NCBI GenBank assembly: GCA_947442475.1
Contig: CANEVP010000003.1
Coordinates: 17,204-81,203, forward strand
Length of the DNA: 64,000 nt
Direction of reading: 5' to 3'
DNA from: Rickettsiales bacterium
Lineage (GTDB): Bacteria; Pseudomonadota; Alphaproteobacteria; Rickettsiales; UBA1997
Shown here: piece after piece, positions 1-31,248 of the stretch
Layout: every line of letters begins with the position of its first letter
Position numbering within the stretch: the stretch's first letter is position 1
Program-made: the position numbers and the translations under genes
Notes under the pieces: model-generated
Databases searched by the model: none
Told to the model about the DNA's origin: nothing
What the model saw: the letters and a program-made list of their open reading frames with translations, nothing else

Positions 1-1629
1 TCGGCAACTGAAACCACGCGTGGCGGAAAATATATTTTGCCATGTTTAAGACTGCTTTCTTCTGATTTAGTGATTGATGAAATTGACGATTTTAACGAAA
101 AAGATTTGATCGCAATTGGTCGCCTAATTCATTTAGCTGCAATGCTGGGGCGCAAAGTTATGATTTCTTCTGCAACTATTCCGCCAAGCCTAGCTGAAGG
201 ATTTTTTAACACTTATCAAGAAGGCTGGAAAATTCACGCTAACTTCAAGCAAGCCAATCAAAACATTGCTTGCGCTTGGATTGATGAGTTTAATTCAGAA
301 GTTGAGTTGATTGATAAAAACGAATCTTTGGCTGCTTGCGATTCATACAAAAATTTCCATCAAAAATTTATCGCCAAACGCATTGCAAATCTTGAGAAAC
401 AGCCAGCAAGGCGCAAAGGATTTATTGTTAAAGTTGATGAATTGTTATCTGACAAAACCGATCAGCAAAAAAAATATTTCGAAAAAATAAGACAAACCGC
501 CGTCAAACTTCACCAGCAGCACAATATTGTTGATGCGACAACTGGAAAGCTGGTTTCGTTTGGAGTAATTCGCACCGCGAATATTCCGCCATGTGTTGAG
601 CTAGCTCGTTATTTATTGGAAGCGCCTTGGGAAGAAAATTTTGCGCCAAAAATTATGGCTTACCACAGTCGGCAAGTTTTGTTGCTACGCCACGAGCAAG
701 AAAAACATTTAGATAAAGTTTTGAAGCGCAAAGAAAAACCAGAAGAAATTCCTCAAGCTCTTAAAAATAAAATTATTCGAGCGCACATTGATTCAACAAC
801 TGCAAAAAATGTGATGTTTATTTTGGTGGCAACGCCAGTTGAAGAAGTTGGTCGCGATCATGATTTTGATTGGGCAATTGTTGAACCATCTTCTTATCGC
901 TCAATCATTCAACTTTCTGGGCGCGTGCGCCGTCATCGCAAAGTTGAAATAGATGAGCCAAATGTGGCGGTGATGCAATATAATTTGCGAGCTTTGAGAC
1001 AAAATGGAAAAGCTGAAACACCAGCATTTTGCCGCCCGGGATATGAAACAAGCAACTCGCTAAAGCTAAATCACCACAATCTTTGCAAATTGATTGACGA
1101 AACAATTTTAGAAAAAAGCATCAACGCCATTCCAAGAATCACCCAGCCAAAAAATCTTAATCCGAAAGAAAATTTGTCTGATCTTGAGCATCAAGCCATG
1201 CAAAATGTTTTAACTAGTTACAACAAAACTGGGCCAAAAAATTTACAAGCTTGGCTAACTGAAAGCTGGTGGCTAACCGCTTTGCCCCAACAGCTAAATC
1301 GCTTCAGAGAAAGCGCGCCCGAAACAAAATTATTTTTGGTTTGGAAGGAAGGAAAATTAGAATTTTGTGAAAAGACCGAAAGCGGCGAATTTATTAATCG
1401 CGAGCTAATTCACGACATCAAAAAACTGCCTAAAATTTCAGAAGAGCTTTCTAAAAAATTATGGCTAGAAAGAAATTACTCAGAGCTTTTAGAAAAATAT
1501 GTTGATGAAGATGGTGGCAATTTAAACAAAGAAGATTTGATGAATAAAAAATCAAAAAAATACGGAGAGATAAATATTGGACCACAAGGCAAGTATTCTT
1601 ACAGCGACCAGTTAGGAATGTGGAAATAA
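1..1629 (+). CDS. cas3: Cas3 helicase, C-terminal part (type I-F Cas3f/Cas2-3 expected); the 5' end lies outside the window
   Basis: The frame is open from nt 1 (SATETTRGGKYILPCL...). It has a DExD-like box VIDEIDDF and a helicase motif VI-like IIQLSGRVRRHR. It lies directly upstream of csy1-4 and a type I-F array. Confidence 0.85.
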   Translation, partial: SATETTRGGKYILPCLRLLSSDLVIDEIDDFNEKDLIAIGRLIHLAAMLGRKVMISSATIPPSLAEGFFNTYQEGWKIHANFKQANQNIACAWIDEFNSEVELIDKNESLAACDSYKNFHQKFIAKRIANLEKQPARRKGFIVKVDELLSDKTDQQKKYFEKIRQTAVKLHQQHNIVDATTGKLVSFGVIRTANIPPCVELARYLLEAPWEENFAPKIMAYHSRQVLLLRHEQEKHLDKVLKRKEKPEEIPQALKNKIIRAHIDSTTAKNVMFILVATPVEEVGRDHDFDWAIVEPSSYRSIIQLSGRVRRHRKVEIDEPNVAVMQYNLRALRQNGKAETPAFCRPGYETSNSLKLNHHNLCKLIDETILEKSINAIPRITQPKNLNPKENLSDLEHQAMQNVLTSYNKTGPKNLQAWLTESWWLTALPQQLNRFRESAPETKLFLVWKEGKLEFCEKTESGEFINRELIHDIKKLPKISEELSKKLWLERNYSELLEKYVDEDGGNLNKEDLMNKKSKKYGEINIGPQGKYSYSDQLGMWK

Positions 1630-1678
1630 TATTTCTAAAATTTGCATTTTCTAATCAACAACAAACACCACAAAACCC

Positions 1679-2092
1679 ATGGAACAAAATCTTGATCAAT
1701 GGAACGATCTAAAGAAAAAGTTAAATATTCAGCCTAAATCACCAAGTTTTGAAGAGCGTGAAATTTGGTGGTGCAGTATAGGTTTAAATGTTGGGCATGA
1801 AGAAAATGGTAAAAGCGAACTTTTTAGTCGGCCAGTTTTAGTGGTCAGAAAGTTCAACCGACATATTTTTTTGGGAATTCCTTTAACCAGTAAAATTAAA
1901 GAATATCACAAGTTCTATCATAAAATTCATTTCAAAGATAAAGAGCAGAGCGTGATGTTGTCTCAGGCAAGAGTTTGGGAAAGTAAAAGACTGACTAGAA
2001 TAAAAGGGAAATTGTCGGCGGAACAGTTCAAAGAGATAAGAATCTTACTTAGTAAGATTGTGCTGGGAGATTATCCAGCCTCTCATTTCTGA
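1679..2092 (+). CDS. MazF/PemK-family endoribonuclease-like toxin, solitary (no adjacent antitoxin ORF)
   Basis: 137 aa. By eye it is collinear with the MazF core: EIWWCSIGLNVGHEENG..RPVLVV..FLGIPLTSK..LSQARVWESKRL..GKLSAEQFKEIRILLSKIV, compared with E. coli MazF GDLIWVDFDPTKGSEQAGHRPAVVLS..VKSIAWRARGA..VAPEELQLIKAKI. The flanking gaps of 49 bp and 73 bp contain no ORF. Confidence 0.7.
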   Translation: MEQNLDQWNDLKKKLNIQPKSPSFEEREIWWCSIGLNVGHEENGKSELFSRPVLVVRKFNRHIFLGIPLTSKIKEYHKFYHKIHFKDKEQSVMLSQARVWESKRLTRIKGKLSAEQFKEIRILLSKIVLGDYPASHF

Positions 2093-2104
2093 GAGGCTGT
2101 TTGT
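2076..2104 (+). terminator. Rho-independent terminator-like hairpin overlapping the stop codon of the MazF-like gene
   Basis: CAGCCTCTCA-TTTC-TGAGAGGCTG forms a perfect 10-bp stem and is followed by TTTGT. Confidence 0.6.
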
Positions 2105-2165
2105 CCCTGATGGGAATTTGTACGTTCATGAAAAACCATAACCAAAAAATGTCAACCAAAGACTT

Positions 2166-3461
2166 ATGAAAAAAATAATCGAAGAATTTTTACTCGAGCG
2201 AAAAAACGCTAAAATTAAAGAAAAGGTAAAACCTGATCTTGCTGAAGATGAAAAACAAAAAATCTTGGATGAGCTAGAAGAGCAGTTTTCTTTGTCGGTT
2301 TGGTTGCTTGATGCTACTAAAAAAATCTCTTGGCTTACAATGTCTAGTCATCCAAGCAAATTCAGTCACCCTGACGCTAAAACCTCTCCAGTAATTGCTA
2401 AAAACAATAAAACAAATGACGGTTACTTGCGCAGCGGAAATGTTGATTACGAACTAGACTTTTCTGGAACTGCAGAGGCTTTAAATATTTCTAAATTTCT
2501 TACTTTAAAAACTGATGACGGAAAAACAATTCTAGATCATTTGGAAAGTGATAGCTCTGAAGCAAAAAAAACATTTTCCTTCCCGAACCTAAATTACGAA
2601 GAGTTAAAACAATCTCTGTTATCGATTAAACAATCTAACAATTCCAAAAAAACTGATCGCTTGGTTAAGCAAATTTATTTTCCTGTAAAAGAAGCTGAAT
2701 ACAACTACCACTTACTTTCAATTCTTACCCCGTCTGGCTTACTTGTCAGAGTTAAAGATAAAATTGAAGAAATCCGTTCTTCTGGAAAAATTAACGAAGC
2801 AAAAGAATTTTACCGAAAAAATGAATTACACGAGACTGAATACGATGACATATTTGGTTTGACAGTTATAGGTTATGGTGGAGCAAAGCCGTTAAATATT
2901 AGTTTGTTAAACAGCAAAAAAAATGGTAAATTCTATTTACTCCCAAGCCTTCCCCCAGAAATCAAAAAACGAGAAGTTCGCCTACCAACTCGCGATTTTT
3001 TTGAAAATAGTTTATGGGCAAAATCTTTCCGCACCAATTTTGAATTTCTTGATCGCCTCATTCAAAACAAAAGAAACAACGCCGATATTCGCGATCAAAT
3101 CAGCAAAACTTTAACTTACATTGCCGATCAAGTTTTGGAGACGGTTTTTAAAATAAGAGATTTCGAAGCGGGTTGGTCAAATAAAGAAAATTATCAGTCT
3201 CTTCCTTTAGCACAGCGCATTTGGCTTGATGACATAAATCTCGAGCAAAGAGAACAAGACGAAAATTGGCTTGAAGAAATTCTGGCCGATTTCACCAGAT
3301 GGGTCATTCGCACTTACGAATATTTATTCAAGGACACCTGCGAAAAAATGGGACCAGCCGAATTTGAGCACATCAAAAAAATCATCAAAGAAGCCATCAA
3401 TCTTTATCCTTCAAAAGATTGTTTGATTGAGCATAAAAAAACTAAGGAGCAGCCAAAATGA
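2166..3461 (+). CDS. csy1: Type I-F Cascade large subunit Csy1 (Cas8f)
   Basis: 431 aa. It is collinear with P. aeruginosa Csy1, including blocks LVKQIYFP, GGAKPLNISLLNS and YLLPSLPP. It is the first gene of the csy1-4 block. Confidence 0.9.
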   Translation: MKKIIEEFLLERKNAKIKEKVKPDLAEDEKQKILDELEEQFSLSVWLLDATKKISWLTMSSHPSKFSHPDAKTSPVIAKNNKTNDGYLRSGNVDYELDFSGTAEALNISKFLTLKTDDGKTILDHLESDSSEAKKTFSFPNLNYEELKQSLLSIKQSNNSKKTDRLVKQIYFPVKEAEYNYHLLSILTPSGLLVRVKDKIEEIRSSGKINEAKEFYRKNELHETEYDDIFGLTVIGYGGAKPLNISLLNSKKNGKFYLLPSLPPEIKKREVRLPTRDFFENSLWAKSFRTNFEFLDRLIQNKRNNADIRDQISKTLTYIADQVLETVFKIRDFEAGWSNKENYQSLPLAQRIWLDDINLEQREQDENWLEEILADFTRWVIRTYEYLFKDTCEKMGPAEFEHIKKIIKEAINLYPSKDCLIEHKKTKEQPK

Positions 3462-4339
3462 GAAGATTTTTACTAATTCCGCACCTAAAAATTCACAATG
3501 CCAATGCCATGAGCAGCCCCTACACAATTGGCTTTCCGGCAATGACAGCTTGGCTTGGCGCGGTTCACGCTTTGCAAAGAAAGCTTGATGAAAATGGTTT
3601 TGCCGAAGTGAAATTGCTGGGAGTGGCAATTTCTTGCCATGATCTGAATTTACAAACTTACAAAGGTCGTGGCGATTATGTTTCTTCAATTATCGCAACC
3701 GCCAATCCGCTTAACAAAGACGGCAGCCGACCAGCTTTCATTGAAGAAGCGCGTTGCCATTTAGAAGTTTCCTTGCTTGTAGAATATCAAGGCCTTAATC
3801 CAGATAATTTGGAAAAATTCAAAAATTTTATTGAGCAGCAATTACAAAAAATGAAATTTGCTGGCGGTGATGTTTTATCGTTTAAGCCAGTTAAAACAGA
3901 AAATGCTGATGAAGATGACGAAGCTTCGATAAAAAAAATTTTAAGAAAGTTGATGCTTGGCTTCGTAATAATTGAGCGCCGCGATTTAATAAAAAAATCG
4001 ATGGAAGACGGCAAAGACGCTTTAGAAGCTTTGCTCGATCACCTAAAAATTATGCACCGCTCCACCAAAAACGACCAAGATGAAGTAAGCTGGAATTCTT
4101 CAAAAAAAGAAGCTGGCTGGCTAGTTCCAATTGCCACAGGCTTTCAAGCAATTTCAGAAATTGGCTTTGCTAAAAACCAACGCGATTCAAAAACCCCACA
4201 CCGCTTCGCCGAAAGTGTTGTGACATTGGGTGAATTTGTAATGGCTCACCGAATTAAAAATTTAGACGACATGCTCTGGCAATATCATGTTGAACAAGAT
4301 TTATACCTTTGCCAAACCAACTTAAACTTAACTAAATAG
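3458..4339 (+). CDS. csy2: Type I-F Csy2 (Cas5f)
   Basis: 293 aa. The N-terminus LLIPHLKIHNANAMSSPYTIGFP..AVHALQRKL parallels Csy2 LLLPRLSIQNANAISSPLTWGFP..FVHALQRR. It overlaps csy1 by 4 nt. Confidence 0.9.
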   Translation: MRRFLLIPHLKIHNANAMSSPYTIGFPAMTAWLGAVHALQRKLDENGFAEVKLLGVAISCHDLNLQTYKGRGDYVSSIIATANPLNKDGSRPAFIEEARCHLEVSLLVEYQGLNPDNLEKFKNFIEQQLQKMKFAGGDVLSFKPVKTENADEDDEASIKKILRKLMLGFVIIERRDLIKKSMEDGKDALEALLDHLKIMHRSTKNDQDEVSWNSSKKEAGWLVPIATGFQAISEIGFAKNQRDSKTPHRFAESVVTLGEFVMAHRIKNLDDMLWQYHVEQDLYLCQTNLNLTK

Positions 4340-4347
4340 GAAAAATT

Positions 4348-5367
4348 ATGACTAAAAAAAATGACGCAACCGTTCTGGCTTTTGAAAAAAAATTAGTGCC
4401 ATCGGATGGCTATTTATACGGAACTAACTGGGAAGAGAAAAACTCTAAAAAAGGAGATGCATTAAAATTAAATGTAAAATCAGTGCGCGGAACTGTATCT
4501 CACAGATTAAAGAAAGTTACGGATAAGGATTTATTAAAATTGAATATGGATATAGCGGATCCAAATCCACAAACTGTTGACTCCTGCGCTCTTGGCGAAA
4601 ATCAAGACACTCTTTGCGTTAAATTCACTCTTAAAGTTTTAGGCGGAATTGAAAAACCATCAGCAAGCAACGGCAAAATTTTCAACGAATCTTACCCAAA
4701 AGTTGCCCAAGAATATGTTGAAAGAACTGGTTTCAAAGAATTGGCTCAACGCTACGCCACCAACATCGCCAATGCTCGTTTCTTGTGGCGCAATCGTGTT
4801 GGTGCTGAAAAAATTGAAGTTGTAGTAAAAATTGGCAATGACGAAACTTTAGTTTTTGATGCTAAAAAATTCTCAATAAATCAATTCGATTCCTCTGATT
4901 CAAAACTACAAATTTTAGCAGAAAAAATTGCGAATGCATTAAGCGGAAAAACAGAATATCTTTTACTTGATATTAATGCTTACGCTTTAGTTGGCAAAGC
5001 CCAAGAAGTTTATCCAAGCGAAGAGTTAGTTTTAGACAAAGGCAAAGGAGACAAGAGTAAAATTTTATATCATGTAAATAATGTTGCCGCAATGCACTCG
5101 CAAAAAATCGGCAATGCTTTGCGCACAATCGACACTTGGTATCAAGAATTTAGCGAAAATGGAAATTCTCCAATAGCAGCTGAGCCCTACGGAGCCGTAA
5201 CAAATTTAGGTAAAGCCTTCCGCAACCCAAGAGATAAATCTGACTTTTTCACTTTATTCGACCGCTTCGCTCTTGGTGAAAAATTAGCCAACGAAAACGA
5301 AGAGCATTACGTAATGGCTGTTTTGGTCCGTGGCGGCGTATTTGGCAAAAGTGGAAAAGAGGAGTAA
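4348..5367 (+). CDS. csy3: Type I-F Csy3 (Cas7f) backbone subunit
   Basis: 339 aa. It has the size and position of Csy3 between csy2 and csy4. Confidence 0.85.
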   Translation: MTKKNDATVLAFEKKLVPSDGYLYGTNWEEKNSKKGDALKLNVKSVRGTVSHRLKKVTDKDLLKLNMDIADPNPQTVDSCALGENQDTLCVKFTLKVLGGIEKPSASNGKIFNESYPKVAQEYVERTGFKELAQRYATNIANARFLWRNRVGAEKIEVVVKIGNDETLVFDAKKFSINQFDSSDSKLQILAEKIANALSGKTEYLLLDINAYALVGKAQEVYPSEELVLDKGKGDKSKILYHVNNVAAMHSQKIGNALRTIDTWYQEFSENGNSPIAAEPYGAVTNLGKAFRNPRDKSDFFTLFDRFALGEKLANENEEHYVMAVLVRGGVFGKSGKEE

Positions 5368-5370
5368 ACC

Positions 5371-6018
5371 ATGAAATTTTACCACGAAATCACAGTCATA
5401 CCAAATCCTGAAATTGGTGAACATTTCATCTGGTCTAAACTCTTCACCCAAATCCACTTAGCCTTGGTCTCCATCCAAGACGAGCAAAAAAAATCGCCAG
5501 TTGGAATTTCTTTTCCCGAATATTTCATGGGCGAAAAATTTGGCGTGATTGGCTCAAAACTGCGACTCTTTGCCCAAAGCGAGCCCGAGTTGCAAAAACT
5601 CGATATTCAAAAATGGCTTTCGCGTTTGACTGACTACATCCACATTTCAGCCATTCGCGAAGTTCCACAAAAAATCAGCGGATATGTCACCTACAATCGC
5701 CATCAGCCAAAAGTTAACAAAGAGCGGCTGATGCGCAGGCACCAAAAAAGGGAGGAAGGCTGGAAAAGCATTATTAACGATCCGCAATCAGAACCAGAAA
5801 AAATTGCCGCAGCGCAAAAAAAGTTGAGTGCAAGGCAACAGCGAATCAATAATTACAACAAAGAAAAAGCCGTCAAAGAGCCATTCATAAAGCTAAAAAG
5901 CCTTAGCAGCGAAAATGATTTTTGTCTGTGGATTAAAAAAACCGCAGCCACTGAGCCAAGTTACCAAAAATTTAGCACCTACGGCTTAAGCGGATTTTCT
6001 TCACTACCCGAATTTTAA
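5371..6018 (+). CDS. csy4: Type I-F Csy4 (Cas6f) pre-crRNA endoribonuclease
   Basis: 215 aa. MKFYHEITVIPNPEI..KLFTQIHLALV..VGISFPEY parallels Csy4 MDHYLDIRLRPDPEF..KLHQALV..IGVSFPD. It is the last gene before the array. Confidence 0.9.
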   Translation: MKFYHEITVIPNPEIGEHFIWSKLFTQIHLALVSIQDEQKKSPVGISFPEYFMGEKFGVIGSKLRLFAQSEPELQKLDIQKWLSRLTDYIHISAIREVPQKISGYVTYNRHQPKVNKERLMRRHQKREEGWKSIINDPQSEPEKIAAAQKKLSARQQRINNYNKEKAVKEPFIKLKSLSSENDFCLWIKKTAATEPSYQKFSTYGLSGFSSLPEF

Positions 6019-6150: not shown

Positions 6151-9100
6151 GCGCGCTGCCGCACAGGCAGCTTAGAAAGCAAAATTAGCAACTTGCCACC
6201 CTGATTTACAGCGCGCTGCCGCACAGGCAGCTTAGAAAAATACTGATCTTCAAAAATCATGGCGCCGACAGCGCGCTGCCGCACAGGCAGCTTAGAAATT
6301 GATGACGGCTGACGAAATAGCAACAAGAGCGCGCGCTGCCGCACAGGCAGCTTAGAAAAGTTCTCGGATCAATCAATTCAAAGGTTTCTGGCGCGCTGCC
6401 GCACAGGCAGCTTAGAAAATCTGCAAATTCCACATCGCTTTTTTAACGCAGCGCGCTGCCGCACAGGCAGCTTAGAAAGTTAATAACTAGGTCATCATTC
6501 TTTGATAAACGCGCGCTGCCGCACAGGCAGCTTAGAAATTTTCTTGACGATCTGGCGTGTTTCATTTTGAGCGCGCTGCCGCACAGGCAGCTTAGAAAAG
6601 AGTTTGGCACCCAGATTTGATTTGGCAGTTGCGCGCTGCCGCACAGGCAGCTTAGAAATGAAAATCAAGATTTGCGAGTGCCGCGCCTGAGCGCGCTGCC
6701 GCACAGGCAGCTTAGAAACAAAAACAGCAGACGCAACCAAGCCCAGCCCAGGCGCGCTGCCGCACAGGCAGCTTAGAAATTTCTCGCTGAGTTGATTAAA
6801 ACTTGGAAACCGCGCGCTGCCGCACAGGCAGCTTAGAAACGCTGTCTTCTCTTGCATCAAGAATTGTTGAAGCGCGCTGCCGCACAGGCAGCTTAGAAAT
6901 TTGAAAAAGCAGGACTTGGCAAAGAAGAAATGCGCGCTGCCGCACAGGCAGCTTAGAAAGATTATATTCGGACAGCCAACGAAAATATTAAGCGCGCTGC
7001 CGCACAGGCAGCTTAGAAATCTGCTGTAAATCTCTTTTTTTCGCTGATCAAGCGCGCTGCCGCACAGGCAGCTTAGAAAGCAAGTATTGACTGCAAATCT
7101 TCTTTCGCGGCGCGCGCTGCCGCACAGGCAGCTTAGAAAGCAAGTATTGACTGCAAATCTTCTTTCGCGGCGCGCGCTGCCGCACAGGCAGCTTAGAAAG
7201 GCTCAAAATTCAATCCTAGGCGGTAAAGCGAGCGCGCTGCCGCACAGGCAGCTTAGAAATGACGCGGTTATTTTCTTTTGCGATCTTTTCGGCGCGCTGC
7301 CGCACAGGCAGCTTAGAAAAAATAGTGCAAAGAATCTATCTTCGAATGAAGGCGCGCTGCCGCACAGGCAGCTTAGAAAAAACTCTGGGGAGATAGTTAA
7401 GTTTTGTAAGTGCGCGCTGCCGCACAGGCAGCTTAGAAAGTTAACTACAACAATTCCAGCGGCGCAAGTTGGCGCGCTGCCGCACAGGCAGCTTAGAAAA
7501 TTGATGGTTTTTTCGTTTTTGAGACTGATGAGCGCGCTGCCGCACAGGCAGCTTAGAAATTAATCCAAGCCTTTCCCTCATTGCTTGAACGGCGCGCTGC
7601 CGCACAGGCAGCTTAGAAATCTATTTGAGCCAATGGAAACCGAGTATAACAGCGCGCTGCCGCACAGGCAGCTTAGAAACGCTTTTATCAATTCGTCAAA
7701 TATTTTGACAAGCGCGCTGCCGCACAGGCAGCTTAGAAATGTTTTCACGTCCAGTTGCAGCTTTACTCGGTGCGCGCTGCCGCACAGGCAGCTTAGAAAG
7801 ATTCTTTTGAATTTATTTGAGAAAGAGAAAAGCGCGCTGCCGCACAGGCAGCTTAGAAAAATGTTTGTGTAAACTAAAGCGATCGAATTTCGCGCGCTGC
7901 CGCACAGGCAGCTTAGAAATTCCTCGCTGAGTTGATTAAAACTTGGAAACCGCGCGCTGCCGCACAGGCAGCTTAGAAAAAGAAATTTTGATTAAATTCG
8001 GCACTTCTGAAGCGCGCTGCCGCACAGGCAGCTTAGAAAAAAATGTTTTGATACTTCTGTTTTTGCTAAAAGCGCGCTGCCGCACAGGCAGCTTAGAAAA
8101 ATCAAAGTTTTCACGTCTGGCGTAGTTTTCGGCGCGCTGCCGCACAGGCAGCTTAGAAAAGAAAAATATTTAGAAATCGCTCGTGATTTGCGCGCGCTGC
8201 CGCACAGGCAGCTTAGAAATTGCTGAATTACTGATCTAACTCTCCAGAGCGGCGCGCTGCCGCACAGGCAGCTTAGAAAGGTTACAATTTAGATAGTCAC
8301 AATCAGTTGGTGCGCGCTGCCGCACAGGCAGCTTAGAAATCAAATTTTAATCTTGTCACGATATTTCCGAAGCGCGCTGCCGCACAGGCAGCTTAGAAAT
8401 TCTGATCCAAAATTTTGGGAAAAATTATTGAGCGCGCTGCCGCACAGGCAGCTTAGAAATTCTCTTGCAAGAGTTCACGTAAAATTTCTTGGCGCGCTGC
8501 CGCACAGGCAGCTTAGAAATGCTTGAAAATACAAAACCCCTTCCAAATTCCGCGCGCTGCCGCACAGGCAGCTTAGAAACGCGAAGTCGAAGAAATGCGG
8601 GACGGGCGGCTGCGCGCTGCCGCACAGGCAGCTTAGAAATCTGACAATGAAAGAAAGAAAGCTTGTCAGCGGCGCGCTGCCGCACAGGCAGCTTAGAAAA
8701 AAGTCGCAACCCTCACCAAATCTGCAATACTGCGCGCTGCCGCACAGGCAGCTTAGAAATTACTTTTTTCTAAAATCGGATTAGTAATTGAGCGCGCTGC
8801 CGCACAGGCAGCTTAGAAACATTTGAATTAGAGTTTTCATTTTTTCCCCTTGCGCGCTGCCGCACAGGCAGCTTAGAAAGCGGGTTGGTTATTAGTTTAA
8901 ATTTTCATTAAGCGCGCTGCCGCACAGGCAGCTTAGAAAGTTAACGACCAACTGATTGTGACTATCTAAATGCGCGCTGCCGCACAGGCAGCTTAGAAAG
9001 CGCATGACTCGCGCGGATAAGTGGAAGAAACGCGCGCTGCCGCACAGGCAGCTTAGAAAATATCTTCGAATACTGAAACATTTTCACCTTGGCGCGCTGC

Positions 9101-11462
9101 CGCACAGGCAGCTTAGAAATAGATCAGAAATTCGACAATCATTTTGCGGACGCGCGCTGCCGCACAGGCAGCTTAGAAAAACGCGATCAATAGCTTTGTA
9201 ATTTAAAATTTGCGCGCTGCCGCACAGGCAGCTTAGAAAAGCAGAGGGAATCTATTTCAACATGCCCGCCGGCGCGCTGCCGCACAGGCAGCTTAGAAAA
9301 GTCGCAGAAACTTTGAGTCCGGCGTAATTTTGCGCGCTGCCGCACAGGCAGCTTAGAAATGTGACTTCCACCTTTTCAACGAATAGCGATAGCGCGCTGC
9401 CGCACAGGCAGCTTAGAAAAATTCTTTTAAATCTATTTGAGAAAGAGAAAAGCGCGCTGCCGCACAGGCAGCTTAGAAAAAACAAGAACTTGATAGCAAT
9501 AAGCCCACTGGGCGCGCTGCCGCACAGGCAGCTTAGAAAACAAAGACGAAGAAAGCGAAACTTTAAATCACGCGCGCTGCCGCACAGGCAGCTTAGAAAT
9601 TGCGAAGTTGTGCAATCAATTAAAACTGAATGCGCGCTGCCGCACAGGCAGCTTAGAAACGTATCTTTTAAAGACAAAGAAGACGAAACAAGCGCGCTGC
9701 CGCACAGGCAGCTTAGAAAACAAATAGCTGATGCAACGTTTAAAAAAGTTAGCGCGCTGCCGCACAGGCAGCTTAGAAAAACTCCACCAACTTTATGATG
9801 AAATTCGCAAAGCGCGCTGCCGCACAGGCAGCTTAGAAAATAACTAAACCATTTAACAACATGTCACTAGCGCGCGCTGCCGCACAGGCAGCTTAGAAAT
9901 CTAACTTAGCAGAAATGAACGTTCTTGATTTGCGCGCTGCCGCACAGGCAGCTTAGAAACAGTTCTGCTAAGTCCCAAAATTCTGCTGATCGCGCGCTGC
10001 CGCACAGGCAGCTTAGAAATTTGCTATCTAAAACATCGAGCGGATTAATTCGCGCGCTGCCGCACAGGCAGCTTAGAAATACATTTTCGAATGGTTCAAC
10101 ATCTCAGTTCAGCGCGCTGCCGCACAGGCAGCTTAGAAAGTTTATAGATTCGTTTGATTCTCTGTTTAGCAGCGCGCTGCCGCACAGGCAGCTTAGAAAA
10201 AGCTCGTTTCTTGGTAAGTTGTCAAATTCTTGCGCGCTGCCGCACAGGCAGCTTAGAAAAATAAAAAAAGTGGCGGAAACGCTAAAAAATGGCGCGCTGC
10301 CGCACAGGCAGCTTAGAAACGAAAAAATCGCTGAAATAAAACGCTTTCAAAGCGCGCTGCCGCACAGGCAGCTTAGAAAGTTTTGGCGCTGTCCAACTTG
10401 CAAAAACTTTGGCGCGCTGCCGCACAGGCAGCTTAGAAAAATTCCATTTTCCACGGGTATAAGCATGTCGCGCGCGCTGCCGCACAGGCAGCTTAGAAAT
10501 GATTTTGGGATTGATTACGATCTATTTTTCGGCGCGCTGCCGCACAGGCAGCTTAGAAAAGCACCTCGAAACAGCGCGGGAATTATTACAAGCGCGCTGC
10601 CGCACAGGCAGCTTAGAAAGGACTTACTTTTGATCTGCGCGATTTTTTCAGCGCGCGCTGCCGCACAGGCAGCTTAGAAAAAATATCAGATGCATTAATC
10701 GTAAATTCCGCTGCGCGCTGCCGCACAGGCAGCTTAGAAATCTGCAGCAATTGAAGGAGAGCCAGCAAGCGAGCGCGCTGCCGCACAGGCAGCTTAGAAA
10801 TTTTCGATATTCTCTGGTAAGCCATGTCTTTTGCGCGCTGCCGCACAGGCAGCTTAGAAATTATCTTGAAGCGTTTGGTTTAAAAAAATCTGGCGCGCTG
10901 CCGCACAGGCAGCTTAGAAAGGCGTAGTTTTTAAAAGAGCCTTTTTTTCGCAGCGCGCTGCCGCACAGGCAGCTTAGAAAAACAATAAGCCAAGATTTCA
11001 CTTGCGCCATTTGCGCGCTGCCGCACAGGCAGCTTAGAAAAGATTACGACTTCGCGCGGGTCGAGATAGCTTCGCGCGCTGCCGCACAGGCAGCTTAGAA
11101 AAGAAGATTGCGCGCCTGCATTCTCGGCATTGTGCGCGCTGCCGCACAGGCAGCTTAGAAATGATCGTTTCAATTCCAATGTTTGCGAGATCAAGCGCGC
11201 TGCCGCACAGGCAGCTTAGAAAAGATTGAATGTTGCCCCAAGATTTAGCCATAGGCGCGCTGCCGCACAGGCAGCTTAGAAATTTGCATATTGATGAATG
11301 CCCACGCTCGCTTTGCGCGCTGCCGCACAGGCAGCTTAGAAAAGCTTTTTCTGACTTGAGAAATATTCGAGAATGCGCGCTGCCGCACAGGCAGCTTAGA
11401 AAGTCTCTCATCTCTTCTACTTCCCGCGCGTTCAGCGCGCTGCCGCACAGGCAGCTTAGAAA
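6151..11462 (+). CRISPR. Type I-F CRISPR array, 89 repeats and 88 spacers
   Basis: The 28-nt repeat is GCGCGCTGCCGCACAGGCAGCTTAGAAA, with a CTGCC-N5-GGCAG hairpin and CTTAGAAA handle as in the canonical I-F repeat GTTCACTGCCGTATAGGCAGCTAAGAAA. The unit period is 60 nt. 84 spacers are 32 nt and 4 are 33 nt (starting at 6719, 10620, 11041 and 11162). I saw no variant repeat on reading. Confidence 0.98.
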
Positions 11463-29757: not shown

Positions 29758-31248
29758 TTATGATTTTTTGACGTTATTTCTTGGTCTTCCTCCCTTTTTC
29801 CACGGGTGATTTTCTGGTAATTTTCCAACAACTTCCTTCCAGCATTTTTCTATGTCTCTGTCAGATAATTTGTATTCACTTATTCCAATTTTTTGATAAG
29901 AATTACCGCTATTGTAGCTTATTTTTGGTAGCAATTTTTTATCCGGATTTCTCTGGATGTCAGCGCTTAATCTAGCTTTAAACTCAGCCAATTTTTTTGA
30001 TTTTTGATTAACCAAATTCTTTGGCGTTAATTTGGAAAAATATTTTGTCTCCATCGCTTGAACATAGGAGCCTACAAACACCGCCTCTTTGATAAATTGC
30101 TCCCTCTCTTTCAATCTTACATCTTCACCCACAAACCAAGTGTGCATTTCTTTGTGAATAGGGGCGGCAATGTGGACTTCCATTTCTTGAAAAAAAACCT
30201 TTTCGGGAAGCAAGCTGCGCGCACGAAGATATGTTAAATGACCAGAAACGAGTTTGATGATTTTATCCTCACTAACCCCAAATTTCTTTATCCACAAAGC
30301 AGCCAACTCTTGGTAATCTAAAAATCTTTCAGGAACCAATTTTTCTGCCTGCTGCTTGAAATAAAAAGTTCGTGTGTAGTCGGAGTCGCTATTTGCATTG
30401 CATCCTTTTGAACAATAAGCATAGCCATCACCATCAATATCACTGCTCTTCAGGGGGGCCAATTCTTTTGGACAAGATAAAAAAATCCATAAATCAATTT
30501 CCCAATCTTTTGCATCAAATTTTTCTTGGTAAAAATCTGTTAACTCAAAATGACTGAGAAGATTATCTCTACTTTCAACCTTCATCATTTCGCCATGAAT
30601 AACCAATCCACGAAAGCCAGTTTGTTTTTGAGAAATAATTAGATCGCCATATTCCTTGTTCGGCGCTTGATCCATCCATCTTTTACCAGTTTTTAAAACA
30701 TACTCAAACTGCTCTTTTGGAATAAGAAAATTTTTTGGAAAAAATACCGAATAATCCACTTCCAAAACCTCATCAGGAAGAACGGTTGCAGATTCTTTAT
30801 CTTCCGCCGCAATGCTTCTTTTGGGGCTTTTTATTCGCTTAGTTTTTTCTTCTTCATATTTTTCACCAAAAGCCTTACGCATTGAGTCTGTTATTTTAAG
30901 ACTCGGCACACCGCCAGACTGCCGTACCACCACAAGATTTTTATCTCTGTTGTGAATTCTCGTTAAAAACTCACTGTAAGTTATTTCAGCAAGCAAGTCG
31001 GCTTTTTTGAGGCCTACTAATCTGCGAACAAAATCATCGCCATCATAAACGTCAAAGAAATCGTTTTTCATCATGTCGTTTAGATTTTCGACAATCGAGT
31101 AAGATAAGTGCGAACCTCTCATCTGATGCCAATTTTCACCTTCTAGTTTTTCACCAATAAGGTCGAAGGCTTCGCTGAGATTGAGATAGTTTTCAGCCTC
31201 TTTTTTGCTAATTTTTTTCTTTGGTTTTGTTGATGGAAGGATAATCAT
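29758..31248 (-). CDS. Hypothetical 496-aa protein, translationally coupled to the integrase
   Basis: It is a long uninterrupted ORF whose start overlaps the integrase stop by 4 nt. I recognise no motif. Confidence 0.6.
   Translation of the reverse strand: MIILPSTKPKKKISKKEAENYLNLSEAFDLIGEKLEGENWHQMRGSHLSYSIVENLNDMMKNDFFDVYDGDDFVRRLVGLKKADLLAEITYSEFLTRIHNRDKNLVVVRQSGGVPSLKITDSMRKAFGEKYEEEKTKRIKSPKRSIAAEDKESATVLPDEVLEVDYSVFFPKNFLIPKEQFEYVLKTGKRWMDQAPNKEYGDLIISQKQTGFRGLVIHGEMMKVESRDNLLSHFELTDFYQEKFDAKDWEIDLWIFLSCPKELAPLKSSDIDGDGYAYCSKGCNANSDSDYTRTFYFKQQAEKLVPERFLDYQELAALWIKKFGVSEDKIIKLVSGHLTYLRARSLLPEKVFFQEMEVHIAAPIHKEMHTWFVGEDVRLKEREQFIKEAVFVGSYVQAMETKYFSKLTPKNLVNQKSKKLAEFKARLSADIQRNPDKKLLPKISYNSGNSYQKIGISEYKLSDRDIEKCWKEVVGKLPENHPWKKGGRPRNNVKKS

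Follow-up and report, generated by a model that had tools for sequence, protein, structure and literature searches.

A MazF-fold gene with a predicted convergent small RNA at the cas3-csy1 junction of a type I-F CRISPR-Cas locus from a Rickettsiales bacterium

Introduction

MazF and PemK are textbook type II toxins that are neutralised by a protein. Here we describe a gene of this family, accompanied by a predicted convergent small RNA (sRNA) gene, that lies between cas2-3 and csy1 in a type I-F CRISPR-Cas locus of a Rickettsiales bacterium (GenBank assembly GCA_947442475.1, contig CANEVP010000003.1, positions 17,204 to 81,203); this whole stretch of 64,000 nucleotides (nt) is called the window in what follows. 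In Acinetobacter, the cas3-csy1 intergenic region of type I-F loci houses CrePA, whose pseudo-spacer matches, over its first 19 nt with the exception of position 12, a CC-flanked site located at the creP promoter (Shu et al. 2024, bioRxiv 10.1101/2024.01.05.574328).

An RNA antitoxin has been described on pVir, a plasmid in Campylobacter jejuni 81-176. Passages in two articles present CjrA as an antisense RNA that serves as the antitoxin in a type I toxin-antitoxin (TA) system of this strain (PMC10470494) and as a type I antitoxin located on pVir (PMC7826846), and according to a passage in a bioRxiv preprint cjrA was the first Campylobacter antisense sRNA to be functionally characterised. The same plasmid encodes the sRNA CJpv3, a minus-strand RNA of 77 nt (31119 to 31043) that differential RNA sequencing (dRNA-seq) and Northern blot revealed in the interval separating pVir0047 from pVir0048, in the orientation '><>' (Dugar 2013, PMC3656092, Table S12). 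The cjpT/cjrA pair is likely to be pVir0047/CJpv3. The source cited for all of these descriptions of CjrA is Shen et al. 2016 (Mol Microbiol 101:909).

We consider it probable that the gene in the window and the element downstream of it form a mobile toxin/RNA-antitoxin-like cargo module, and that the coupling to CRISPR that is seen in relatives has been lost or reduced in the window.

Results

A MazF-fold protein with a conserved N-terminal extension

The 137-amino acid (aa) product matches PF02452 (PemK_toxin) over residues 27-127 (47.9 bits against a gathering score of 23.1; E 1.7e-12), with an N-terminal extension of about 26 aa outside the match. An AlphaFold2 model made with 39 homologues has a mean pLDDT of 73, with values of 80-91 over residues 51-130, and its top 50 Foldseek matches in the PDB are all MazF, EndoA or MoxT structures (probability 1.00; TM-score normalised to the target of about 0.6-0.75 for the top matches). 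On this model the open reading frame (ORF) is a MazF-type RNase gene whose product has a predicted SH3-like beta-barrel of the MazF/Kid fold. An alignment of 39 sequences of the clade has a conserved N-terminal helix with W8 and K12, an invariant R51-P52 pair, and T70 of a PLT(S/T)K motif conserved in at least 90%; the family alignment also yields the clade motif EREIWWCSIGxNVGHEENGK. R51-P52 aligns opposite the RP motif of Kid and the PLT threonine opposite T48 (AIT48) of Staphylococcus aureus MazF. By analogy with published MazF work, from which their roles are taken, R51 and T70 are the putative catalytic Arg and Thr positions. The ratio of non-synonymous to synonymous substitution rates (dN/dS) between the gene in the window and its relatives is 0.04-0.10, which points to purifying selection on the protein, and we infer that it is a toxic endoribonuclease. 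It had no match in PADLOC-DB, and its only MazF match in NCBIfam was weak and far under the cut-off. The protein is soluble and RNase-like, and is not the small hydrophobic membrane peptide of the classical type I systems.

A predicted convergent sRNA gene at the 3' end of the toxin gene

The stop codon of the toxin gene, TGA (2090-2092), falls within the 3' arm of a perfect hairpin (hairpin 1), and a second, shorter hairpin (hairpin 2) follows it (Table 1). On the minus strand the two make up a predicted sRNA of about 52-55 nt that converges on the toxin gene and overlaps the last 24 or so nt of its ORF; it is the sole match in the 64 kb to our covariance model R1. The RNA reads 5'-(GU)ACAAAU, hairpin 2, ACAAAC, hairpin 1, GAUAAUC-3', and its minimum free energy (MFE) structure consists of the two hairpins (z = -5.5). 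Its promoter ends 6 nt ahead of the ACAAAU, which starts at 2121, so that the 73-base pair (bp) gap between toxin gene and csy1 (2093-2165) is almost wholly taken up by the 5' part of the sRNA and its promoter. Promoter, structure, covariance-model match and type I-style antisense overlap together argue in silico for an sRNA at this locus. Its 3' end would lie at hairpin 1, by analogy with CJpv3, whose 3' end comes just after the equivalent hairpin in C. jejuni. Rfam gave nothing credible over 1500-2400 at E values up to 10, with no known pemK-associated motif or sRNA, and over the whole window it found three tRNAs and nothing else. We also considered whether the sRNA is a type I-F repeat-like (CreA-like) RNA and rejected this, as its stem, loop and flanks differ from CTGCCGCACAGGCAG.

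The original prediction, made from the DNA of the window, had placed a MazF-fold ORF of this length, with an N-terminal extension, at the cas3-csy1 junction of a type I-F locus, between gaps of 49 bp and 73 bp too short for an antitoxin gene. All of this holds: TIGR02562 (cas2-3) and PF09611 (csy1) matches flank the gene, and neither gap has an ORF of at least 40 aa. The prediction went on to call the gene solitary, with its own 10-bp-stem terminator that would uncouple csy1-4 from cas3. A conserved convergent sRNA gene at its 3' end speaks against solitude, and of the terminator only the hairpin is real. On the plus strand the tail beyond hairpin 1 is TTTGTCCC (= UUUGUCCC), with no U-tract, and a terminator scan called hairpin 1 on neither strand; since the hairpin belongs to an sRNA on the opposite strand and lacks a plus-strand U-tract, the proposed uncoupling is unfounded.

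Table 1. Features of the toxin locus in the window, and the mini-array of locus L103
Feature	Position	Strand	Evidence or description
cas2-3, C-terminal part, type I-F	37..1629	+	TIGR02562 cas3_yersinia 5.2e-120; PF22590; gene cut by the start of the window
cas2-3-to-toxin spacer, 49 bp	1630..1678	+	CA-rich leader AAACACCACAAAACCC; no Shine-Dalgarno sequence
MazF/PemK-fold toxin gene, 137 aa	1679..2092	+	PF02452 47.9 bits; fold; family alignment; dN/dS
Predicted convergent sRNA, about 52-55 nt	2069..2123	-	Covariance model R1 53.1 bits, E 2.5e-7; MFE fold; covariation
Hairpin 1, 10-bp perfect stem, loop TTTC	2076..2099	.	Arms 2076-2085/2090-2099, 10/10 complementary; compensatory changes among relatives
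Hairpin 2, TCCC-TGAT-GGGA, 4-bp stem	2104..2115	.	100% paired in 64 sequences; both-side changes at all four pairs
Predicted sRNA promoter	2128..2155	-	-35 TTGACA 2155-2150; 16-nt spacer; -10 TTTCAT 2133-2128
csy1	2166..3461	+	PF09611 3e-106
csy1, csy2, csy3, csy4 (cas8f, cas5f, cas7f, cas6f)	2166..6018	+	PF09611, PF09614, PF09615, PF09618
Type I-F CRISPR array	6151..11462	+	89 identical 28-nt repeats GCGCGCTGCCGCACAGGCAGCTTAGAAA, 88 spacers
crRNA-like mini-array (degenerate repeat, 19-nt pseudo-spacer, repeat hairpin)	L103:4112-4255	+	Also in L104, L105, L106

The sRNA element is conserved across the family and its structure covaries

When the region was aligned with four relatives (78-98% protein identity), the non-coding stretch after the stop codon, GTTTGTCCCTGATGGGAATTTGT, was invariant in four of the five sequences, and the fifth, locus L001, differed in the loop of hairpin 2 only. 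The 31-nt stretch 3' of the stop codon retains 84-90% identity among relatives whose synonymous sites are saturated. Almost everywhere in the family the 3' flank of the gene carries a GC-rich hairpin of variable sequence and then the short hairpin GTG(G/C)C-N4-G(C/G)CA, followed by ATTTGT and, some 30-40 nt further on, by TGTCAA. On the minus strand the family order is 5'-ACAAAU, hairpin 2, a linker of 3-5 nt and hairpin 1, and a promoter of the form TTGACA-16/17-TAnAAT, scoring at least 9 of 12, stands in the same register in 56 of 65 loci, ending 5-7 nt before the conserved ACAAAU. Hairpin 1 is followed by a U-run, the classic intrinsic terminator, in members from the candidate phyla radiation (CPR), and by GA(C/U)UAAAU in alphaproteobacterial members.

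The structure is borne out by covariation. Hairpin 2 shows pairing in 100% of the cells when 34 sequences are aligned with MAFFT, and all four of its pairs have changed on both sides, one of them dividing into 18 CG and 16 GC. The covariation score of the whole structure is 0.528 against 0.214 for shuffled alignments and was reached by none of 500 shuffles; it collapses in slid-partner controls, and the result is the same when 64 sequences are aligned by fitting to the model. The frequent U-G pairs of the minus-strand reading correspond to C-A mismatches on the plus strand, a bias that favours the minus strand. The covariance model had 64 matches (E up to 1) in 1.29 Mb, 62 of them in convergent orientation where a family gene has its 3' end; the matches cover 60 of the 88 family gene copies, in several phyla, and most of the remaining copies are CPR variants with, by eye, a hairpin of the GGCC-GAA-GCC type. 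All newly fetched close relatives have the element. In the window it is single-copy, downstream and convergent, and there are no tandem repeats in 1300-2600.

Additional copies occur elsewhere. Locus L107 has three extra tandem sRNA-like copies on the minus strand upstream of its toxin gene (3132-3294), in a prophage-like region with SSB, SNase and integrase genes, and second copies of the element were also seen in L009, L045 and L025. Such copies may be antitoxin genes that have been orphaned, or what is left of modules since lost.

A homologous gene and a convergent sRNA on the Campylobacter pVir plasmid

The toxin has a homologue on pVir, CJJ81176_pVir0047 (30634-31038, plus strand; 35% identical, tblastn 4e-14), which bears the annotation PemK/MazF family toxin and is followed by about 860 bp in which no gene is annotated. 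CJpv3 is convergent to this gene and ends 5 nt past its stop codon; its Northern probe, GCCAATTCTTCGCTAAACTTTCA, matches sequence at the pVir locus. The two pairs thus share a homologous protein with the same N-terminal extension, the lack of a protein antitoxin, and a convergent RNA with its own promoter that ends in a GC hairpin a few nt past the stop codon. They differ in that CJpv3 is longer (77 nt, three hairpins), has no detectable sequence similarity to the predicted RNA of the window, and lies on a plasmid and not in a cas locus. At a homologue on a Nitratiruptor plasmid (44% identical), TATAAT followed by AUAAAU and two hairpins can be discerned by eye; covariance model R1 did not detect this sRNA either.

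No protein antitoxin recurs beside the gene

Clustering of the neighbours at 84 loci, three genes on each side of the toxin gene, brought out no conserved small ORF or protein partner. The neighbours that did recur were rpoB/rpoC (upstream, in CPR members), trpB/trpA, mnmA and cas2-3; where the gene is embedded in a trp operon, the end of trpB overlaps its start. A type II operon of the MazEF type, with an adjacent MazE/PemI/Kis, AbrB or ribbon-helix-helix (RHH) antitoxin, was not found.

The family is widespread and mostly found outside cas loci

A search of 5.8 billion proteins gave 857 relatives of the toxin, nearly all of them single-domain proteins of 127-137 aa, and PF02452 is carried by all 120 homologues among the matches listed. 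A scan of GTDB, with one genome per species, gave 528 family loci; the loci fetched for analysis are the best 80 of these 528 or more. The hosts are Rickettsiales-like and other Alphaproteobacteria, many CPR/Patescibacteria lineages, Saprospiraceae, Trueperaceae, Caldilineaceae and others, and some genomes have up to five copies. More distant relatives reside on plasmids of Campylobacter, Helicobacter and Nitratiruptor and in Campylobacter CJIE4 prophages. There were no relatives among the viral contigs of IMG/VR, and a metagenome scan with the single toxin protein gave 16 loci, too few for statistics.

The majority of family members lie outside cas loci. Relatives that are 78-84% identical to the toxin in the window occupy unrelated sites: beside a TIR gene (L001), after carB (L108), between trpB and trpA (L113) and in a prophage-like region with an integrase (L107). 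Because most members are outside cas loci and close relatives sit in unrelated places, the toxin/sRNA module is mobile and not dedicated to CRISPR. The ends of a mobile element were not seen around it, there being no tandem, flanking direct or flanking inverted repeats. The original prediction had set itself against a gene family that occurs mainly outside cas loci with a conventional antitoxin alongside; the family does live mostly outside cas loci, and no conserved protein antitoxin accompanies it at the 84 loci.

The module has also entered core operons. In Alphaproteobacteria it is found between trpB, whose stop codon overlaps the toxin start, and trpA, and in Patescibacteria directly after rpoB-rpoC (loci L020, L022, L023, L026, L113; L051, L054, L063, L076). 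Target-site duplications or terminal repeats were not seen at these insertions. A convergent promoter within the trp or rpoBC operons should interfere with their transcription.

Three arrangements beside type I-F cas2-3, and a CreA-like mini-array

The module stands beside type I-F cas2-3 in three distinct arrangements: cas2-3, MazF, csy1 in the window, L087 and L103-106, with L005 (Rickettsiales bacterium UBA2645) keeping cas2-3 and MazF and having its csy genes replaced; cas1, MazF, cas2-3 in L003/L088 (a type I-Fv locus) and L007; and mnmA, MazF, cas2-3 in L016-L019. As a rough estimate, an insertion at random would adjoin one particular gene in about 0.2% of cases, so that capture by type I-F loci on two or three independent occasions, out of a few dozen contexts, would be far above chance. 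Among the relatives with the arrangement of the window, the toxins are 82-93% identical, the Cas3 proteins 66-77% and the Csy1 proteins 56-77%; because this layout is common to loci whose Cas3 and Csy1 have diverged, the insertion of the toxin gene is, by sequence comparison, old relative to the divergence of these loci.

In two loci the genes around cas2-3 are of interest in their own right. L005 (2830-4350), with a toxin 98% identical to the one in the window, follows the window up to the start codon of csy1 and then diverges into a gene for a 460-aa HATPase_c_3 protein in place of csy; the contig thus has cas2-3 and the toxin gene without Cascade genes. In L018 (13973-14818), which has the arrangement mnmA, MazF, cas2-3, a 281-aa Bro-N protein is encoded directly after cas2-3 and no csy genes are visible before the contig ends; L017 and L053 have similar ORFs. 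In Acinetobacter type I-F systems the CreP toxin derives from Bro-N/KilAC proteins.

In L103-106 the gap between cas2-3 and the toxin gene is 143 bp long and contains, in this order, a plus-strand promoter (TTGACA-16-TACTAT; 4132-4159 in L103), a degenerate repeat, 19 nt and a second repeat hairpin. In L103 the degenerate repeat (psiR1) keeps its 8-nt handle, ATGCCGCACAGGCAG-CTTAGAAA, the 19-nt pseudo-spacer is TTATTAAACTTGAGTTGAT, and the second repeat hairpin (psiR2), CTGCCGCGGAGGCAG, is identical to that of the local array. The target of the pseudo-spacer lies at 4108-4126 on the opposite strand, has a CC protospacer-adjacent motif (PAM) and is 4 nt from the -35 box. All of the first 16 positions match except position 12, a position that is not read by Csy complexes. 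A seed of this length was attained by none of 3000 shuffled spacers, the longest among them being 13. The distance from handle to hairpin is 19 nt, against 37 nt in a canonical CRISPR RNA (crRNA), and the difference of 18 nt equals three 6-nt Cas7f segments. By analogy, the wiring of the L103 mini-array is of the CrePA/CreTA (CrePA/CreR) type, with a putative RNase as the toxin; the literature searched makes no mention of a MazF/PemK toxin in this role.

L087 keeps only the second hairpin: a single CRISPR-repeat-like hairpin, TTGCCGCACAGGCAGCC, lies at 330-370, upstream of a toxin gene with a 93%-identical product, and has, by sequence, the look of a stage midway from the mini-array of L103 to the state of the window. 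Outside its array the window is free of repeat-like hairpins, and alignment shows that the mini-array segment is absent; L005 is likewise without it. The best PAM-flanked seeds that the 88 array spacers of the window have near the toxin gene are 9-10 positions long, which is the chance level. One of them, a 9-position seed of spacer 62 (CC|ATAACCAAA at 2136-2157 (2138)), lies over the sRNA promoter and was judged a chance match because there are 15 seeds of at least 9 positions across 58 kb.

The original prediction had asked for cas3-csy1 junctions of related loci to be surveyed, and the same insert is indeed there in L087 and L103-106. Its proposal of a CreTA-like coupling to CRISPR draws support from the shared layout in diverged relatives and from the CreA-like mini-array in one of them, and fails in the window itself, which has neither a CreA-like element nor a Cascade target. 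Its idea of silencing by a small RNA fits in so far as an sRNA is predicted, with a probable antitoxin role, and is unsupported as to its kind: the RNA is family-wide, independent of CRISPR and unlike a crRNA.

Transcription and other features of the locus in the window

A promoter scan found no plus-strand promoter-like site between cas2-3 and csy1, the 49-bp gap included, and the simplest inference is therefore that read-through transcription from cas2-3 would cover the toxin gene and csy1-4, passing over the antisense sRNA gene on the way. CA-rich leaders, ACACCACAAAACC, without a Shine-Dalgarno sequence precede the toxin genes of the clade (1655-1678 in the window), and the G/U-rich 3' untranslated region (UTR), with GUUUGU and AUUUGU, is partly complementary to this leader; on account of that complementarity a hok-like fold-back of the 5' and 3' ends of the toxin mRNA is conceivable. 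In the CRISPR array, the spacer GCAAGTATTGACTGCAAATCTTCTTTCGCGGC is present twice, in adjacent units (7080-7171).

Discussion

In the model that we propose, the toxin ORF and the 73-bp gap that follows it form a compact two-gene module of about 0.5 kb. The sRNA, with a sigma-70-type promoter of its own, would extend along the minus strand from about 2123/2121 to about 2070, and because its terminal hairpin straddles the toxin stop codon its whole length would be complementary to the toxin transcript, here the cas2-3/MazF/csy read-through RNA, at the 3' end and in the 3' UTR. It would act as the antitoxin, most likely by cis-antisense pairing as in type I systems, with CjrA as a precedent. Direct binding of the RNase, as in type III systems, may also occur: the ACAAAU and the UG(S)C/G(S)CA hairpin 2 are conserved across phyla and are unneeded for antisense pairing, which suggests that the toxin protein also recognises the RNA. 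In the related lineage represented by L103, Cascade would repress the promoter that drives the mini-array, the toxin gene and probably csy. The window would have lost this Cascade layer, leaving a toxin that is probably read through from cas2-3 and held only by its own sRNA, in a module that would be either an addiction cassette for the cas locus or a selfish element that simply persists.

This module resembles several described systems in part. With type II MazEF, PemIK and Kid-Kis it shares the Pfam family, the fold and the catalytic Arg/Thr positions; it differs in having no adjacent protein antitoxin, an extra conserved N-terminal helix and a conserved RNA as its partner. The type III systems (ToxIN, CptIN, TenpIN) likewise combine a structured small RNA with an RNase toxin whose fold falls in the broader Kid/MazF-like class, and the conservation of the RNA sequence here suggests protein recognition as in those systems, but the toxin belongs to PF02452 and not to the ToxN/AbiQ family, and the RNA is single-copy and convergent, with its own promoter and no tandem RNA repeats upstream of the toxin gene. 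The hallmark of a type I system of the cjrA/cjpT kind, an independent antisense sRNA that overlaps the toxin transcript, is predicted at this locus in silico. With CrePA the locus has in common a protein toxin gene exactly at the cas3-csy1 junction of a type I-F system, and L103 adds a psiR-psiS-psiR unit with a CC-PAM target at the toxin promoter and a mismatch at position 12, as in ADP1. The toxin is, however, a MazF-fold RNase where CrePA has a KilAC domain protein, an antisense sRNA comes with the module, and the pseudo-spacer of L103 is 19 nt long instead of 30 nt. The window itself shares the location and has no creA-like element, neither the psiR-psiS-psiR mini-array nor the match to a target at a promoter. 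The L103 mini-array also resembles the autoregulatory mini-arrays of type I-F1 systems (PMC10120712; Liu et al. 2023 bioRxiv), lying between cas3 and csy1 and targeting a promoter that presumably also drives csy1-4; it differs in that a toxin gene intervenes between mini-array and csy1, and the window has no mini-array.

Several observations weigh against a toxin held by an sRNA in the window. Its -10 box, TTTCAT, is the weakest of the clade and lacks the A at position 2 (the boxes are TTTAAT in L087, TATAAT in L103 and TACAAT in L001), and on this account the sRNA may be poorly transcribed there. On the minus strand no U-run follows hairpin 1 in the window or in other alphaproteobacterial members. 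Covariance model R1 does not match the C. jejuni sRNA, and homology between CJpv3 and the predicted RNA of the window would thus be an argument from position, orientation and architecture. Locus L109 has a 59-aa ORF (5825-6004) that overlaps the toxin start codon by 4 nt and is weakly RHH-like (PF07878 7e-4 and PF01402 2e-3, both under threshold); it may be a protein regulator or antitoxin in that lineage, in which the sRNA element is also present. Finally, that some members sit within rpoBC and trp operons could mean that their role is not a toxic one.

Other explanations have to be set against the cargo module that we favour. The toxin of the window could be a CRISPR-coupled dormancy or abortive-infection RNase that is silenced by a Cas component or a crRNA-like RNA and freed when Cascade is lost or inhibited. 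The gene does occupy the very position used by CrePA in Acinetobacter, three arrangements beside cas2-3 are known, and the psiR1, 19-nt pseudo-spacer and psiR2 of L103, with their CC-PAM target 4 nt from a -35 box, and the one hairpin kept in L087 would all fit. The window, however, lacks the mini-array segment and any repeat-like hairpin outside its array, none of its spacers has a PAM-flanked seed near the toxin above chance, its 49-bp gap contains no promoter of the toxin's own, and the RNA partner is family-wide in a family that mostly lives outside cas loci, so that we regard this explanation as unlikely for the window. The protein might instead be a domesticated, non-toxic RNase or RNA-binding protein, with the sRNA as its substrate, cofactor or guide and the location in a cas locus incidental. 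Members in housekeeping operons, where they overlap trpB, precede trpA or directly follow rpoC or mnmA, the strong purifying selection and the abundance of the family in the reduced genomes of CPR/Patescibacteria and Rickettsiales, with up to five copies per genome, are in line with domestication. It is hard to reconcile with a patchy distribution, with mobility and 78-84% identical copies in unrelated contexts (a prophage-like region, plasmids, Campylobacter prophages), with the retention of the catalytic Arg and Thr, or with a homologue on the same plasmid as a described TA system with an RNA antitoxin, and we think it quite unlikely.

The element downstream of the gene could also act on the plus strand, as a cis-acting 3' UTR or bidirectional terminator of the toxin mRNA, with the promoter boxes incidental. 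Either strand could form both hairpins, which are sufficiently palindromic, the UUUGU after hairpin 1 could bring about partial termination on the plus strand, and the -10 box of the window is poor. Yet in different phyla the -35 and -10 boxes stand in the same fixed register relative to ACAAAU, the U-G pairs of the minus strand would be C-A mismatches in a plus-strand RNA, extra copies of the element lie without a toxin ORF directly upstream (L107, L009, L045, L025), and in the C. jejuni homologue a minus-strand RNA has been detected by Northern blot and its transcription start mapped; a plus-strand role is in our judgement very unlikely.

A wider claim goes beyond the cargo module, and we put it forward tentatively, as a possibility that we hold to be rather less than even: that the family is a new class of MazF toxins with a structured sRNA antitoxin, spread across phyla (CPR, Rickettsiales-like Alphaproteobacteria, Bacteroidota, Deinococcota, Campylobacterota), and that it was made into a type I-F guard with two RNA layers, of which the Cascade layer has decayed in the window. 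In such a guard the mini-array would direct Cascade to repress transcription of the toxin gene and the antisense sRNA would control the toxin post-transcriptionally, so that loss or inhibition of Cascade would release the RNase toxin.

The gene family, type I RNA antitoxins and CRISPR-repressed toxins are known already. Within the literature searched and Rfam, what is new is a MazF clade, spread over several phyla, that is defined by a structured RNA partner, its capture by type I-F loci, and a CreA-like mini-array that would drive a MazF-type toxin. The adjacency to type I-F genes and the mini-array of L103 extend the CrePA/CreTA idea of a CRISPR-guarding toxin to an RNase, and the loci offer a natural series for the origin or decay of such a guard, from a full mini-array through a single hairpin to none, in which the window is the least elaborate version of the system. 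For annotation, the hairpins at the 3' ends of such toxin genes should not be taken for terminators. If our reading is true, a widely distributed MazF clade with a constant sRNA partner adds an RNA-antitoxin architecture to the MazF/PemK family, and this would explain many of the 'orphan' MazF annotations in reduced genomes.

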